The notes under the pieces are model-generated. The model did no database searches. It worked only from the letters and a program-made list of their open reading frames with translations, and was not told the DNA's origin. Shown here one piece after another: positions 3,707-36,176 of a stretch of 37,184 nucleotides of DNA (positions are counted from its first letter, which is position 1; each line of letters starts with the position of its first letter). The translations under genes were made by a program, and so were the position numbers. The DNA lies in assembly GCA_013349695.1 (NCBI GenBank), contig DUZD01000002.1, positions 1-37,184 on the forward strand, given 5' to 3'. The DNA comes from Rhodospirillaceae bacterium (GTDB lineage Bacteria; Pseudomonadota; Alphaproteobacteria; Rhodospirillales; 2-02-FULL-58-16).

Positions 3707-3753
3707 GTAATATTGGCAAAACACCGGCCTGCCCGGTGTTTTGCCAATATTAC
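3707..3753 (-). terminator. Intrinsic terminator-like hairpin downstream of the rhodanese gene
   Basis: Perfect 21-bp stem (3707-3727 / 3733-3753) with a 5-nt loop (cctgc). On the minus strand it is followed by TTGTTTTCAAATTGG. It lies between the rhodanese stop (3797) and the AT-rich oxidase-operon upstream region. Confidence 0.6.
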
Positions 3754-4912: not shown

Positions 4913-6145
4913 GTGAATCGGAAGCAGCGGCGCCGGATGGCGAAACGGCAACGCCCGGGAGCGCCGGCGGCGACGGATCGGCTGTTGGACGAGGCGTTGG
5001 AGCAGCACCGGGCCGGGCGGCTGGACAAGGCCAAGGTCCTCTACGAGGACGTCCTCTCGGCGAAGCCGGACGATGCCGGCGCCTTGCACTTCCTTGGCGT
5101 TCTTGCCCACCAGCAGGGAGACCACGAGGAGGCATACCGGCTCATCAGCCGGGCGATCGCCGCCGACGGCCGCCAACCCGCCTTTCATGACCACCAGGGC
5201 GTGGCCCTGCGCTGGATGGGACGGACAGGCGAAGCCGAAGCCGCCCACCGCCGGGCCATCGAACTCGACCCCGGTTTCGCCGCCGCCTATGTCAATCTGG
5301 GTAACACCCTGGGCGTTCGGGGCAGGCTGGAAGAAGCGGAAACGGCCTTCCGGCGCGGCCTCGAACTCAATCCCGCCGACGCCGGCGCCCATAACAACCT
5401 CGGCAACACCTTACGGGTGCGGGGCAAGCTGACCGAGGCGGCCGACGCCTACCGCGGGGCCTTGGAGCTCAATCCGGATTTCGCCAAGGCCCATTCCAAC
5501 CTTGGCGCCATTTTGCGCGAGTTCGGCGACTTCCAGCAAGCCGAGACCGCCTGCCGGCGGGCCATCGAGCTCGATCCGGGCTACGCCGACGCCTATAACA
5601 ACCTGGGCAACGTCTTGATGGCGATGGAAAGGGTGGAAGAAGGAGTCGAACGTTACCGCCAAGCCGTCGCCTTCGATCCCAACTCCCCCTTGCTTTTGTC
5701 CAATCTGGGTGGCGGTTTGACCACCCTCGGACGGCTGGATGAAGCGCAAACCATGTTCCGCCGCGCCATCGAAATGAACCCGGATTGCGCCGAGGCGCAC
5801 AACGGGTTGGGGGTGGTCATGCTCTCTCAGGGCAAGACCGAGGAAGCCTTGGCCAACTATCGAAAGGCCCTCGCCATCAAGCCGGATTATGTGGACGTCT
5901 TCTACAACATGACGAACTCGGGGCGGGTCGAATTCGCCGCCGGCGAATTACGCCGGATCGGGGAAATGCTCGCCGACAACGGTCTCTCCGATGAAGCCAA
6001 GGCCAAACTTCGCTTCGCGCTCGCCGAGCACCATGCCCGCCGGGGCGAAATCGATACCGCTTTCGACCTATACCGGCAGGGCAACGAAGCGCGGCGGCAA
6101 GCCCTGGCGGCGGCGGGCCGCCGTTACGATGGCGCCTCGCAGTAG
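4913..6145 (+). CDS. TPR-repeat protein (N-terminal part of a TPR-sulfotransferase architecture)
   Basis: 410 aa with at least 8 recognisable 34-aa TPR units (…A..Y..AIELDP..A.AY.NLGN…). GTG start at 4913 has GGAGAGGGAAAGG upstream. It ends at TAG 6143-6145. Confidence 0.8.
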   Translation: MNRKQRRRMAKRQRPGAPAATDRLLDEALEQHRAGRLDKAKVLYEDVLSAKPDDAGALHFLGVLAHQQGDHEEAYRLISRAIAADGRQPAFHDHQGVALRWMGRTGEAEAAHRRAIELDPGFAAAYVNLGNTLGVRGRLEEAETAFRRGLELNPADAGAHNNLGNTLRVRGKLTEAADAYRGALELNPDFAKAHSNLGAILREFGDFQQAETACRRAIELDPGYADAYNNLGNVLMAMERVEEGVERYRQAVAFDPNSPLLLSNLGGGLTTLGRLDEAQTMFRRAIEMNPDCAEAHNGLGVVMLSQGKTEEALANYRKALAIKPDYVDVFYNMTNSGRVEFAAGELRRIGEMLADNGLSDEAKAKLRFALAEHHARRGEIDTAFDLYRQGNEARRQALAAAGRRYDGASQ

Positions 6146-15659: not shown

Positions 15660-15772
15660 ATTTGGAAATTCGGTGACAGCATACTTAATTCGCGCCCCCT
15701 TGCGGCGGACAGAGATGGAATTTCAGTAATCCCTGATATTGAATTAAGTATGCTGTCACCGAATTTCCAAAT
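15660..15772. repeat. AT-rich 32-bp perfect inverted repeat with 49-nt loop (element A)
   Basis: ATTTGGAAATTCGGTGACAGCATACTTAATTC (15660-15691) is the exact reverse complement of 15741-15772. Its last base is the first base of the pfkB stop-codon triplet (15772-15774). Confidence 0.9.
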
Positions 15773-16614
15773 TAAACGAGGCTTTTTATAGCCTCAATGG
15801 GAAGCGTCGAGCTTTCCCATTTAGTCGCCTCCGCGCCCCAGGCGCAAGCCGTGGTAAGCGCCTGGTTCATATCGGCGCCGGAGACCAGGGCATGGATAAG
15901 CCCGGCGGCGAACGCATCGCCGGCGCCGGTGGTGTCGATGGCTTTCACTTTCGGCGCCGGAACGGACAAATGATCGTCAAGGGCATAAGCCGTGGCGCCG
16001 TTTTCACCCCGCGTGACGATCACCCACTCAAGAGCGTTCCCGGCGACCCGGCGGCCCGCCTCGAAAGGTTCGTTGAGCATCAAAGCCTCAAGGTCCGATT
16101 GGGAAGCGACCAGAATGTGAGCCGGCCGGACGCCGTCGCCGCAAGGCGGCATATGGGCGATAACGCGGCAGGATTGCATCTTGGCATCGAGAAGCGGGCC
16201 CAGGTCTGGAGACCAGCTTCGTACGTAAAGGCTATCCGCGGCCACGTTGAGGAGACGCGCCGGCGGTTTCGTCTCTTGGCAGCGGTTGAGATTGACGATG
16301 GTGCGCTCGCCTTCGGGATCGATCATCACCACCGAGCGGGTCGACGCCCCTTCGACGGTGATGATTTGCGAGCTGTCGATGCCGTTGGCGGTTAATTCCG
16401 CCAGCAGTTCCCGGCCCACCCTGTCGTTGCCAGTGGCGGAGACGATTACCGTCTCGTGACCGGCGCGGGCCAGGGCGACACCGGTGTTCGAGGCACCGCC
16501 GCCGAGACGCTCTCCCAGCCATTCGCCTTGCATGTGGGTGCCGGCGTGAAAAGGCGTGCCGAGGCGGATCACCTCGTCCCTGGCCACCGAACCGACAACA
16601 AGGATGCGCGCCAT
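15772..16614 (-). CDS. pfkB-family carbohydrate/nucleoside kinase (ribokinase-like)
   Basis: Start chosen at ATG 16614 (MARILVVGSVARDEV...). It has GGGASNTGVALARAG and C-terminal DTTGAGDAFAAG motifs. The track ORF's extra 22 N-terminal codons run into repeat element B. Confidence 0.8.
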   Translation of the reverse strand: MARILVVGSVARDEVIRLGTPFHAGTHMQGEWLGERLGGGASNTGVALARAGHETVIVSATGNDRVGRELLAELTANGIDSSQIITVEGASTRSVVMIDPEGERTIVNLNRCQETKPPARLLNVAADSLYVRSWSPDLGPLLDAKMQSCRVIAHMPPCGDGVRPAHILVASQSDLEALMLNEPFEAGRRVAGNALEWVIVTRGENGATAYALDDHLSVPAPKVKAIDTTGAGDAFAAGLIHALVSGADMNQALTTACAWGAEATKWESSTLPIEAIKSLV

Positions 16615-16636
16615 TCGCCCGCCGCGCCCCCCGCTC

Positions 16637-16899
16637 ATACCAAGGATCGACGATAATGACCCATAGAGACGGTTTCCCAAGGCTTTCGGCTAGGAGTGCG
16701 CGGCGTGGCGATGCGGGGCATCGCGAGACGGGCACGACGACGTCCGAAAGCCTTGGGAAACCGCCGTTCCGGTCGCCTCGGCGCCCCGTCGGAGGGCGTC
16801 GAAAAGTCTTGACGATGTGCCGCATCGCCGGCAACTTTTCTCCTACCCGACGGGGCGCCGAGGCGATCTCTATGGGTCATTATCATCGATCCTTGGTAT
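16637..16899. repeat. 263-bp nested-palindrome intergenic element (element B)
   Basis: 33-bp terminal inverted repeats (16637-16669 / 16867-16899, one C.A mismatch) enclose two 94-nt hairpin units in inverted orientation. These are 16670-16763 and 16773-16866, each closed by a perfect 20-bp stem and separated by a 9-nt spacer. Confidence 0.9.
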
Positions 16900-17348
16900 T
16901 ATCCCTTCTTTTCCCAGCCGCCGCTGTCGGTCTGCTGCCAGTACGTCAGTTCGTGGCCCGTTTCCTTATAGGCCTTCCAGCATTTCCGCGCCGCTTCGAC
17001 AGCCGCCGGATCGTTGCCGTCGAACAGCTCGAAACAGCGCTCGTAATCGCCGACGCGCTCGGAGGCCGCGCCATCGGTCAGAAACAGGAAAGTGGCGCCG
17101 TTAGGGGTTTCGTCGCCGATCGCAAGCCAGATCGGCTGGTCTTCGGCGTTGCCATCCTTGCCGCCGCCGTGAGGAAGCCAGGAACCCTGTTCGTAGGTCC
17201 AGAGCAGCGAATTCAGGGCCTCGACCCGTTGCGTGGATCCGGCGACGACAACCGCCCGTTTGCCTGTTGCCAGGGTTTTTTCCAGAAGCTTGGGCAAGGC
17301 CGCCTCCAGAGATGATTTCGTCAGGTGGTAAAAAGCGATTTCGGTCAC
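16899..17348 (-). CDS. holC: DNA polymerase III chi subunit
   Basis: MTEIAFYHL...RAVVVAGSTQRVEALNSLLWTY...WLPHG is typical HolC, 149 aa, directly downstream of pepA. Confidence 0.85.
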   Translation of the reverse strand: MTEIAFYHLTKSSLEAALPKLLEKTLATGKRAVVVAGSTQRVEALNSLLWTYEQGSWLPHGGGKDGNAEDQPIWLAIGDETPNGATFLFLTDGAASERVGDYERCFELFDGNDPAAVEAARKCWKAYKETGHELTYWQQTDSGGWEKKG

Positions 17349-34880: not shown

Positions 34881-35906
34881 ATGACCGTCGAGGCGAATGG
34901 AAGCGAAAAACCGTTGGCCCTGACCATGGGCGAACCCGCCGGCGTCGGCGCGGAAATCGCCCTCAAGGCCTGGCAAGGCCGGAATGGCGGCACGCCCTTG
35001 TTCTTTCTCCTCGATGATCCGCCCAGGCTCAGACGTCTGGCCGAACATCTCGGCCTCGACATCTCCATCCGCGATATTGACTCGCCCGCCGAGGCGGCGG
35101 CGGTATTTTTTTCATGCCTGCCGGTTTTGCCCCGTCCCTTGGCCGCCGATCCGGTTCCGGGGCAACCGGATCCCGCCAATGCAAACGCCGTTCGCGGCGC
35201 CATCGAGGCCGCCGTCCGGCTTGTTCAATCGGGAGAGGCCGGCGCCGTTGTCACCAACCCCATTGACAAGCGGTGTCTCCACGCGGCCGGTTTTCCCTTT
35301 CCCGGCCATACCGAGTTCCTGGCCGCCCTCTCCGGAACCAACAGCCGGCCAGCGATGATGCTGGCTAACCCGGAGCTGCGGGTGGTCCCGGTCACCGTGC
35401 ATTTGAGCCTGGACCAAGCTGTCAAGGCGCTAACCCCTCGGGATATCGTGGAAACGGCGACGGTCGCGGAAGCGTCGTTGAAACGGGATTTCGGCATCCC
35501 CGAGCCGCGGCTGGCGGTGGCCGGGCTTAACCCTCACGCCGGCGAAGGCGGCATCATGGGCGCCGAGGAAGGATCGATCATCGAGCCCGCCGTCGCCCTG
35601 CTGCGGCAACGGGGCATCGATGTTTTCGGCCCGGTATCCCCCGACACCCTCTTTACGGCTCTAGCGCGCCAACGATACGACGCCGCCATCTGCATGTATC
35701 ACGATCAGGCCCTGATCCCGGTCAAGGCTATCGGCTTCGAAGAGACCGTCAATGTTACCCTGGGCTTGCCGTTCGTACGCACCTCGCCCGGCCACGGCAC
35801 CGCTCTCGACATCGCCGGCACGGGCCAAGCCAGCGCCGCAAGTCTGGCCGCCGCCTTGAGCATGGCGGCGGCGATGGCGCGGCGCCGCGATGCCGGCAAT
35901 CCCTGA
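34881..35906 (+). CDS. pdxA: 4-hydroxythreonine-4-phosphate dehydrogenase
   Basis: ATG 34881 (MTVEANGSEKPLALTMGEPAGVGAEI), GHTEFLA and HGTALDIAG motifs. The earlier part of the track ORF overlaps the surA 3' end. Confidence 0.9.
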   Translation: MTVEANGSEKPLALTMGEPAGVGAEIALKAWQGRNGGTPLFFLLDDPPRLRRLAEHLGLDISIRDIDSPAEAAAVFFSCLPVLPRPLAADPVPGQPDPANANAVRGAIEAAVRLVQSGEAGAVVTNPIDKRCLHAAGFPFPGHTEFLAALSGTNSRPAMMLANPELRVVPVTVHLSLDQAVKALTPRDIVETATVAEASLKRDFGIPEPRLAVAGLNPHAGEGGIMGAEEGSIIEPAVALLRQRGIDVFGPVSPDTLFTALARQRYDAAICMYHDQALIPVKAIGFEETVNVTLGLPFVRTSPGHGTALDIAGTGQASAASLAAALSMAAAMARRRDAGNP

Positions 35907-36176
35907 GAGCCCGTCCGGGGAGTTATTGATGTTTCTCAATGCCTTGTGTTTTTGTTCCGGTAGGAGGCGGGGGCGCCGTGATGCCGGCGCATCACAAGCG
36001 CCCGCCGACGCCCCGGAGCGGAAACACAAGGCACCCAAAGGGCGGGCTGGAAGGGCGCCCCTGCCGCGTCCTGGAGCCTCGACGATGCTCCGGCATCGCC
36101 TTCGGCCCCACTCCTTGCATTGGCGCCCTTCCAGCCCGTTGAGAAATATCAATAACTCCCCGGTCGGGCTCTGAGG
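35902..36176. repeat. 275-bp nested-palindrome intergenic element (element C), same architecture as element B
   Basis: 38-bp terminal inverted repeats (35902-35939 / 36139-36176: 35 Watson-Crick pairs, 1 G.T, 2 mismatches) enclose two hairpin units. These are 35940-36033 (94 nt) and 36043-36138 (96 nt), separated by a 9-nt spacer. The left repeat contains the pdxA stop codon. Confidence 0.9.

Follow-up and report, generated by a model that had tools for sequence, protein, structure and literature searches.

What is the 263-bp nested palindrome that separates holC from pfkB in a Rhodospirillaceae bacterium, and how did it come to lie there? The DNA in question, hereafter the window, is a stretch of 37,184 nucleotides (contig DUZD01000002.1 of assembly GCA_013349695.1), and the palindrome, called element B, occupies its positions 16637-16899. 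We conclude that element B is a miniature inverted-repeat transposable element (MITE), i.e. a non-autonomous DNA transposon, of 261 bp with ends of the IS630 type. It has terminal inverted repeats, a target duplication, no transposase gene in its 261 bp, dispersed copies, an empty site in a relative, and repeats like those of an autonomous insertion sequence (IS). As an overall explanation, it is very probable that this MITE is moved by a clade of IS630 elements and that its hairpins have been selected as a folded single strand.

Anatomy, insertion site and copies of element B

The initial annotation of the window had described three tiers of inverted repeats, and all of them are present, far beyond chance expectation. 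The outermost tier is a pair of 33-nt arms (16637-16669 and 16867-16899) that are 97% complementary, with the single mismatch reported; none of 100 shuffled sequences gave such a pair, and the repeat occurs at only these two sites in the window and is absent from shuffles. Between the arms lie, as described, two inverted 94-nt units, each closed by a perfect 20-bp stem (16670-89/16744-63 and 16773-92/16847-66) around a 54-nt interior, and the 9-nt mini-hairpin sits at the dyad centre (16764-16772). Both interiors contain (C/G)TAGGAG, a 7-bp inner stem and a GGCGATG...CATCG apical hairpin; the one detail of this third tier that has to be corrected is the full pairing of GTGCGCG/CGGGCAC, which includes a G.G mismatch. 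Folding had been proposed as a check, and the 263 nt as a single strand reach -115.9 kcal/mol (z = -16.2 versus shuffles). The features of the locus are as follows.

15772..16614, - strand: pfkB-family kinase gene (Pfam PfkB), downstream of holC and in the same direction
16635..16637, TCA on the + strand: left copy of the target duplication, differing from the right one at a single base
16638-16898: element B proper, 261 bp, target duplication excluded
16638..16669, + strand: left terminal inverted repeat, 32 bp, TACCAAGGATCGACGATAATGACCCATAGAGA; conserved in 13 copies; 22/31 bases as in the right end of an IS630-clade IS
16670..16763, sense on the + strand: hairpin unit 1 (type 1), 88.6 bits with covariance model R1; 20-bp outer stem, CTAGGAG / GACGACGT internal loop, 7-bp inner stem, apical GGCGATGC-GGG-GCATCGC hairpin
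16764..16772: central mini-hairpin CCG-TTC-CGG (CCGTTCCGG), 9 nt, at the dyad
16773..16866, sense on the - strand: hairpin unit 2 (type 2), 97.7 bits with covariance model R1; 20-bp outer stem, GTAGGAG / GACGCCCT loop, GAAAAGT/ACTTTTC inner stem, apical hairpin
16867..16898, - strand: right terminal inverted repeat, 32 bp, which differs from the left one at a single base; 23/31 bases as in the right end of the IS630-clade copy in locus L188
16899..16901, TTA on the + strand (TAA on the - strand): right copy of the target duplication, identical with the holC stop codon
16899..17348, - strand: holC (DNA polymerase III chi; Pfam DNA_pol3_chi), open reading frame (ORF) including the stop codon that was the insertion target; upstream gene

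That element B was inserted here is seen from an empty site. The closest HolC relative, 85% identical, is encoded in a Rhodospirillales metagenome-assembled genome (MAG; locus L148) with the same holC-pfkB order, and the site there reads ...GAAAAGAAGGGATAA|ACGGGGGGCGCAGCAGGCGAATGGCGCG, i.e. ...GGGATAA|ACGGGG, with a single TAA, while the window has 264 extra bases at the bar. The 264 bp without a counterpart in L148 equal the 261-bp element plus a 3-bp duplication, and they lie inside a spacer that measures 20 nt in the relative. The insertion polymorphism that had been proposed as a check is thus present, the relative being exactly 264 bp shorter. Since the family copies described below are 261 bp long and flanked by 3-bp repeats, the element proper was delimited to 16638-16898, and the outermost base of each 33-nt arm is part of the 3-bp target duplication. 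The reported 1-nt overlap of the right end with the holC stop codon therefore has to be reworded: the 33rd arm base is a duplication base, and the element proper abuts the stop codon (TTA, 16899-16901). The element-borne ATG at 16638, noted earlier as an in-frame upstream start for pfkB, does exist, but the ortholog in L148 begins ATGGCGCGTATT... (MARILVV...) without an extension to it. Because the ortholog starts there, we place the pfkB start at the conserved ATG at 16614, 23 nt past the downstream end of element B on the - strand (window 16638).

Element B is one of many copies, as a search suggested by the initial annotation made clear. An exact-pattern scan with the interior core, using one genome per species, gave at least 120 loci; among the matches listed these are mostly from Alphaproteobacteria (Rhodospirillales, Kiloniellaceae, Thalassospiraceae, Magnetovibrionaceae, Hyphomicrobiales, Roseibium/Labrenzia and sponge-associated MAGs). 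Several MAGs have at least 7 copies, and the 37-kb window has one family-B copy. Carriers include the cultured Marivibrio halodurans CGMCC 1.15697 (L116) and Labrenzia sp. OB1 (L018). We found at least 13 full family-B copies, in about 11 other Rhodospirillales-like assemblies, with 85% column identity and each 261 bp from repeat start to repeat end. The flanks of 13 copies read TNA...TNA and were identical on both sides in 10 of them (TTA six times, TAA three times, TGA once). The repeat is conserved across many genomes in an anchored alignment, and the mini-hairpin is paired in 13/13 family-B copies with one co-varying pair (CCG/CGG versus CCC/GGG). The spacing from core to core is 105 nt in 16 of 18 pairs; it is 102 nt in L110 and 165 nt in L066, which has a nested insertion. 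No match was obtained by blastn of element B and two other repeat classes against 72,556 plasmids. In Rfam, the window gave no match at gathering thresholds, and a permissive E-value scan of element B returned sub-threshold chance matches; searches of the literature for a family already described gave nothing specific.

Many of the core matches lie 40-85 nt from contig ends, which marks these copies as assembly-breaking repeats. Short-read MAG contigs end inside elements in L024, L032, L045, L047, L048, L062, L066, L069, L074, L093 and L101. Contigs broken at elements are found especially in sponge-associated 'Proteobacteria bacterium' bins, where the family adds to assembly fragmentation.

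The IS630 clade and the terminal repeats

The likely source of the transposase was traced through a different IS that is inserted in a related MITE in L119. Its end, TACCAACTTGC... (terminus TACCAAC), occurs 12 times in that MAG and is always preceded by TTA (9) or TAA (3), and 205 plasmid records contain annotated transposases of the IS630 family that match the N-terminal part of its ORF. The site in L119 (6724-7017, with L162-L172) is an IS630-clade IS at TTA inside a MITE of the repeat class GAGCGGTTCCGG..., and all 12 copies in this deep-sea MAG terminate contigs. A homolog on the long contig L173 proved to be a nested, decayed copy. Intact copies were found in Azospirillum, Agrobacterium, Shinella, Ensifer and Sinorhizobium: they are ~1.16 kb long and read TNA|TAC(C/G)...GTA|TNA, with the same triplet on both sides. 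A catalytic-domain scan returned more than 590 relatives of the clade; those that could be delimited from 80 further loci have TACCAA/TTGGTA ends, with identical TNA on both sides in 14/14. The clade, to which the Azospirillum oryzae element at NZ_CP054622.1 199253-200313 belongs, encodes a ~353-aa transposase in two frames. The IS630-family loci L174-L178 and L186-L263 also show the ~1.16-kb length, the split transposase and identical 3-bp TNA flanks (TTA, TAA, TCA).

The element B repeat agrees with the right end of these ISs in 23-24 of 31 bases. Over positions 7-31 alone, 16 of 25 bases match versus 6.0 expected, a value reached by none of 20,000 shuffles. Judged by this comparison, the element B repeat is homologous to the IS right end over its whole length, and both termini of element B, rather than one, resemble that right end. 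The AT-rich patch of the repeat (GATAAT) goes back to the right end of the IS, in which the stop codon of the transposase lies within GATCAT. The 2-bp TA duplication that is the textbook trait of IS630/Tc1 elements was not found; both the MITE and the IS clade have 3-bp TNA. Since the empty site in L148 cannot be reconciled with a duplication of TA alone, we conclude that this clade makes 3-bp TNA duplications, a departure from the textbook TA. The TNA duplication had at first been read as pointing to an IS5-family (IS1031-like) parent; this assignment was dropped, as intact IS630 copies share both the termini and the duplications. The idea that the hairpin units are subterminal parts of the parent IS was likewise rejected: the covariance model described below finds no unit in 86 IS630 loci, and the hairpins are therefore not IS-derived.

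We propose that a DDE transposase of this IS630 clade (~1.16 kb, TACCAA...TTGGTA ends) moves element B in trans; mobilisation by such an enzyme is suggested by the shared termini and duplications. The transposase would recognise the two 32-bp repeats, both resembling the IS right end, and would insert the element at TNA, mostly TTA or TAA, duplicating those 3 bp. At this locus the insertion hit the holC stop codon (TAA), which lay 20 nt upstream of pfkB, and the duplication leaves that codon intact. The interior consists of two head-to-head 94-nt units instead of decayed IS sequence, so that each strand reads repeat, sense unit, 9-nt mini-hairpin, antisense unit, repeat.

Selection on the hairpin unit

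A covariance model of the 94-nt unit, another of the checks proposed earlier, was made with 50 units. In the window it picks out exactly four, those of element B and of a second element of the same architecture, element C; at E < 1e-8 it gives 110 units in 71 sources, among them 37 paired elements. The model had no match in the 86 IS630 loci, nor in 20 holC loci taken from relatives, nor in a 200-kb part of S. meliloti pSymB. In 107 distinct units, 91.4% of the cells of the alignment are paired, versus 65.3% after shuffling and 38-46% when the partners are slid; the covariation score is 0.664, versus 0.19 for shuffled and 0.10-0.15 for slid partners, and none of 500 shuffles reached it. Both sides changed in 31 of the 37 pairs. 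All the base pairs of the outer 20-bp helix co-vary (20/20, 94.6% paired), as do those of the inner 7-bp helix (7/7, 93.2% paired), and the apical helix is conserved in sequence. AGGAG, GACG and GATG/CATC are invariant in 50/50 aligned units. The sense reading common to the window elements is (N)NAGGAG, variable stem, GGCGATGC(C)GGNGCATCGYC, complementary stem, GACGNC. On whole elements, 93.1% of cells are paired versus 82.2% for shuffles, and the repeat helix is 95.2% paired with 16/32 pairs co-varying. Since its interior consists of two hairpins with co-varying stems, we conclude that element B is non-coding.

These results bear out the structure-level selection postulated in the initial annotation: all 20 outer and 7 inner pairs change on both sides while pairing stays at 93-95% across the 107 units. 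Its statement that the stems of the two units differ completely is only partly correct. The stems do differ and still pair, but this is partly because the units belong to two old distinct types, within each of which the inner portions of the stems are conserved across genomes. Type 1 has CGG... stems and C(T/A)AGGAG...GACG(A/C)CGT, type 2 has TCG... stems and G(T/C)AGGAG...GACGCCC(T), and each element has one of each, even across repeat classes. The alternative offered at the time, templated hairpin generation, is not supported, as related copies share an inherited mismatch and wobble in the same stem (e.g. tcgcgtaggcggctcgtcgg/ccgacgggccgcatacgcga in L019, L032, L042, L059, L069, L074 and L086). 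Given these shared inherited mismatches, we take the stem arms to be copied along with the element instead of being generated anew whenever it moves. The order sense-then-antisense was found in 37/37 elements, so each DNA strand has a sense unit in its 5' half. Single-unit variants (repeat, one unit, mini-hairpin, repeat) exist in L018 (2716-2810, Labrenzia sp. OB1) and L111 (2243-2336), showing that an element may lose one unit and otherwise retain its architecture. A kink-turn in the AGGAG/GACG loop, suspected by eye, was not supported: in type-1 units, no pair forms between positions 21 and 70.

The two strands of a unit are not equivalent. In sense orientation, the three stems contain 311 G:T wobbles versus 48 A:C mismatches (G:T in the outer, inner and apical stems: 142, 119 and 50; A:C: 33, 4 and 11). 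Of 103 units, 100 have a sense strand that folds better than its complement with RNA parameters (-63.7 versus -53.8 kcal/mol, p = 4e-18). Since a symmetric double-stranded or cruciform role would not give such an excess of G:T over A:C, one strand of each unit has been selected, most likely to fold as RNA.

Would the elements be transcribed at all? The window genes are housekeeping genes (NDK, PfkB, HolC, PepA, LptF/G, LptD, SurA, PdxA, RsmA and others), and both elements lie between co-directional genes, B between holC and pfkB and C in the pdxA-rsmA interval of the lptF-lptG-lptD-surA-pdxA-rsmA cluster, whose lptD-surA-pdxA-rsmA part is conserved. One copy of the duplication doubles as the stop codon of a gene reading into the element in 7 of about 14 family-B copies. 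For 15 elements, genes were called on either side; these flanking genes are co-directional in 8 cases, convergent in 5 and divergent in 2; orientation relative to flanking genes was 4 versus 2, too few cases for a bias. There is no terminator-like U tract after the units on the transcribed (-) strand, and the single terminator-like match is on the + strand, with a weak 5-bp stem inside unit 2. An intrinsic (bidirectional) terminator was thus rejected, as neither unit is followed by a T run and both window elements lie upstream of co-directional genes. An inward promoter in the repeat (GATAAT) was also rejected, as no promoter-like site was found in element B. Given the co-directional neighbours, the stop-codon sites and the lack of promoter and terminator signals, we expect the elements to be contained in host mRNAs.

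Once co-transcribed, in operons or 3' regions, the unit would fold as RNA, and the inverted pair would guarantee one sense unit per transcript from either direction. Pairing of the repeats together with the units would collapse the insert to a compact four-way junction, which may insulate or process the transcript, and the AGGAG/GACG loop and the GATG/CATC stem may be bound by a hypothetical factor. Such insulation or processing would make insertions tolerable and let the family persist. For a function of the unit at the RNA level in co-transcribed insertions, which we infer from fold and context, our confidence is just under even.

Several points speak against parts of this interpretation. 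None of the 30 proteins in the window is a transposase of any kind, and the missing promoter-like site weighs on the same side. Cells were counted over copies that share ancestry, so the number of independent events is overstated, and the covariation in the repeats may just as well stem from their co-evolution with the transposase. In DNA, too, G:T is tolerated better than any other mismatch, and the strand asymmetry persists with DNA parameters, so that a role as single-stranded DNA is conceivable. Finally, a purely insulating fold leaves the invariant loop and apical-stem sequences unexplained.

The main competing explanation is, accordingly, that the hairpins act as single-stranded DNA in transposition or replication, for example extruded or on the lagging strand, where they would join the ends or mark the element for the transposase; the structure would then serve the mobility of the element and not an RNA role. 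With DNA parameters, the sense strand is again the more stable one in 93 of 103 units (-34.4 versus -31.5 kcal/mol). Selection acting on master copies that proliferate most readily accounts for the maintenance of the stems across genomes and repeat classes, the ~33-bp repeat length and the 105-nt core spacing are constant across classes, and the whole-strand folds of elements B and C juxtapose the two element ends. However, the autonomous ISs manage without such hairpins, the advantage of the sense strand is far larger with RNA parameters (-9.9 versus -2.9 kcal/mol), and a symmetric cruciform would penalise G:T and A:C equally, which is not what we see. Moreover, IS630/Tc1-type transposases are known to act on double-stranded ends. 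We therefore consider a role as single-stranded DNA unlikely and selection for folding as RNA the better reading.

Other repeat classes, known systems and significance

A window-wide repeat search identified element C at 35902-36176, with 33-38-nt outer arms, two ~21-bp stems and 52-nt interiors. Its features are as follows.

35904-06 and 36172-74: TGA/TGA flanks; the left TGA is the pdxA stop codon
35907..36171: element C, 265 bp, same architecture as element B
35907-35939 and 36139-36171: terminal repeats
35940-36033 (+) and 36043-36138 (-): hairpin units
36034-42: centre, CCCAAAGGG

As a single strand, element C folds to -114.8 kcal/mol (z = -15.3). Its arms (GAGCCCGTCCGG..., GAGCCCG... termini) and stems are unrelated to those of element B, and the interiors alone are alike. 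Indeed, the two-unit interior occurs between at least 8 unrelated-looking ~33-nt repeat classes. The inner block CCATA(C/G)(G/A)GA of element B recurs in several of these, and the shared block and the 33-nt length fit divergence from one ancestral MITE; element C and the GAGCGGTTCCGG... and GAGGGG... classes are without this block. No IS family could be assigned to the GAG-type repeats (element C and the L022 class), and a GAGCGGTTCCGG terminus in L173 is not part of the IS5-family IS next to it, but is situated beyond it. A CTAG-flanked class (L056 ~5237-5555, L066 ~5864-6121) has extra G+C-rich palindromes (gggggtgtcccccc...) nested in the unit stems, so that the core spacing is extended to 165 nt.

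In L057 (6721-7073), one sense unit is bounded by termini (GGGTCCGTACTCAATAACC) that match an 845-bp IS5-family IS (DUF4096 + DDE_Tnp_1_2) at L173 3825-4669. The MITE terminus GGGTCCGTACTCA agrees with the IS terminus GGGTCCGGACTCA in 12 of the first 13 bases, and the IS carries PF13340/PF01609/PF13586. This is the single example of the IS5 type, its second unit is degenerate, and the match hints that the hairpin module has been combined with the repeats of a second transposase family.

Could the 94-nt unit then be independent, a functional RNA or else a protein-binding motif, with the MITEs as mere vehicles, or with an outer stem that mimics the repeats? The variety of repeat classes around the interior, including element C with its TGA duplication, and the IS5-type termini in L057 would be understandable on this basis, as would the invariance of AGGAG, GACG and GATG/CATC in 50/50 units, which match no Rfam family. 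Every unit, however, lies inside a repeat-bounded element, and ~1.4 Mb of loci contain no solo or gene-flanking units. The IS5-type case is single and half degenerate, and the common inner block and repeat length fit one ancestral MITE. We regard an independent motif as quite improbable, and a MITE interior inherited together with its repeats as preferable.

A further candidate, raised in the initial annotation, was a repetitive extragenic palindromic (REP) or REPIN-type element mobilised by a REP-associated tyrosine transposase (RAYT, HUH/Y1). Element B shares with REP/REPIN/BIME sequences its hairpin units in alternating orientation, its two unit types, its position after stop codons and its strand-specific structure, which would be expected of enzymes acting on single-stranded DNA, and the 5' motif of its units is often GTAGGAG. 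It differs from them in its 32-bp terminal inverted repeats and 3-bp target duplications, both identical in type to those of the IS630-clade ISs. Furthermore, the GTAG motif is not invariant, as the bases before AGGAG vary (GT, CT, GC, CC, CA, CG), no Y1 transposase is found among the 30 window proteins, and no solo units were found. A REP/RAYT origin is thus very improbable, and this lead was abandoned. An assembly artefact (palindromic chimera), the condition that had been named as refuting the element, or a chance palindrome is negligible: long perfect palindromes can arise from chimeric reads and many MAG copies lie at contig ends, but the 261-bp element with its duplications sits in the interior of contigs in over 10 independent assemblies, long-read MAGs among them, the fold z-scores are -16 and -15, and a relative has a clean empty site.

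Among known systems, RUP of Streptococcus pneumoniae is an IS630-derived MITE attributed to IS630-Spn1. Element B resembles RUP-type MITEs in being short, non-coding, multi-copy and intergenic, with IS630-like terminal repeats, a TA-containing target and long stem-loops. It differs in the 3-bp TNA duplications of its family, where 2-bp TA is usually quoted, in having two right-end-like ends, and in the co-varying hairpin pair that is absent from the IS. The Correia elements (CREE/NEMIS) of Neisseria and the ERIC/IRU sequences of enterobacteria are co-transcribed, and their hairpins can be processed by RNase III or RNase E and alter mRNA stability. Like element B, these are repeat-bounded miniature elements beside genes, and element B may be their functional analogue; unlike it, they form one long hairpin out of their two repeats and not a four-way junction with two conserved strand-specific arms, and there is no sequence similarity.

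In Alphaproteobacteria, the intergenic repeats RIME1/2 (Rhizobium-specific intergenic mosaic elements) and the Sm-repeats of Sinorhizobium are described as having large palindromes with conserved sequence and structure (PMC2573895). The sequences compared gave no link to element B: the unit model gave nothing in the 200 kb of pSymB, and blastn nothing in the 72,556 plasmids. Integron attC sites also conserve structure with little conservation of stem sequence, and one strand folds specifically. They differ from element B in forming cassette arrays beside an integrase, in having other conserved boxes and in lacking terminal repeats and target duplications; the window shows no integron context.

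Two other palindromes in the window deserve mention. A perfect 32-nt inverted repeat at 15660-15772 (ATTTGGAAATTCGGTGACAGCATACTTAATTC, 49 nt between the arms) is AT-rich and abuts the pfkB stop codon; it is possibly another small mobile element, and its 15 bits with the unit model are a weak, generic hairpin match. A perfect 21-bp inverted repeat with a 5-nt loop at 3707-3753 (GTAATATTGGCAAAACACCGG), in the gap between a cupredoxin-like and a rhodanese gene, may be an operator or a terminator-like hairpin.

To summarize, an odd nested palindrome is explained as an ordinary object, a MITE, and the annotation around it is fixed, i.e. where holC stops, where pfkB truly starts, and that 264 bp have been inserted in the spacer between them. 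The family is widespread in marine and soil Alphaproteobacteria and fragments MAG assemblies, and by landing preferentially on TAA/TGA stop codons in operons, it could alter operon expression. Strand-specific covariation together with invariant loops points to a structured motif, of RNA or of single-stranded DNA, that travels on transposons and has not been described before. It is conceivable, on balance doubtful, that the 94-nt unit, with its variable 20-bp and 7-bp stems, its invariant AGGAG/GACG loop and its invariant GCGATGC apical stem, is an undescribed functional single-stranded motif, likely RNA, read by a conserved trans-acting factor, and that the module, not the repeat, is the persistent evolutionary unit, linked to more than one transposase family. 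If this were true, the persistent module would span IS630-type (element B), IS5-type (L057) and GAG-type (element C) repeats, and the head-to-head pair would make it orientation-independent.

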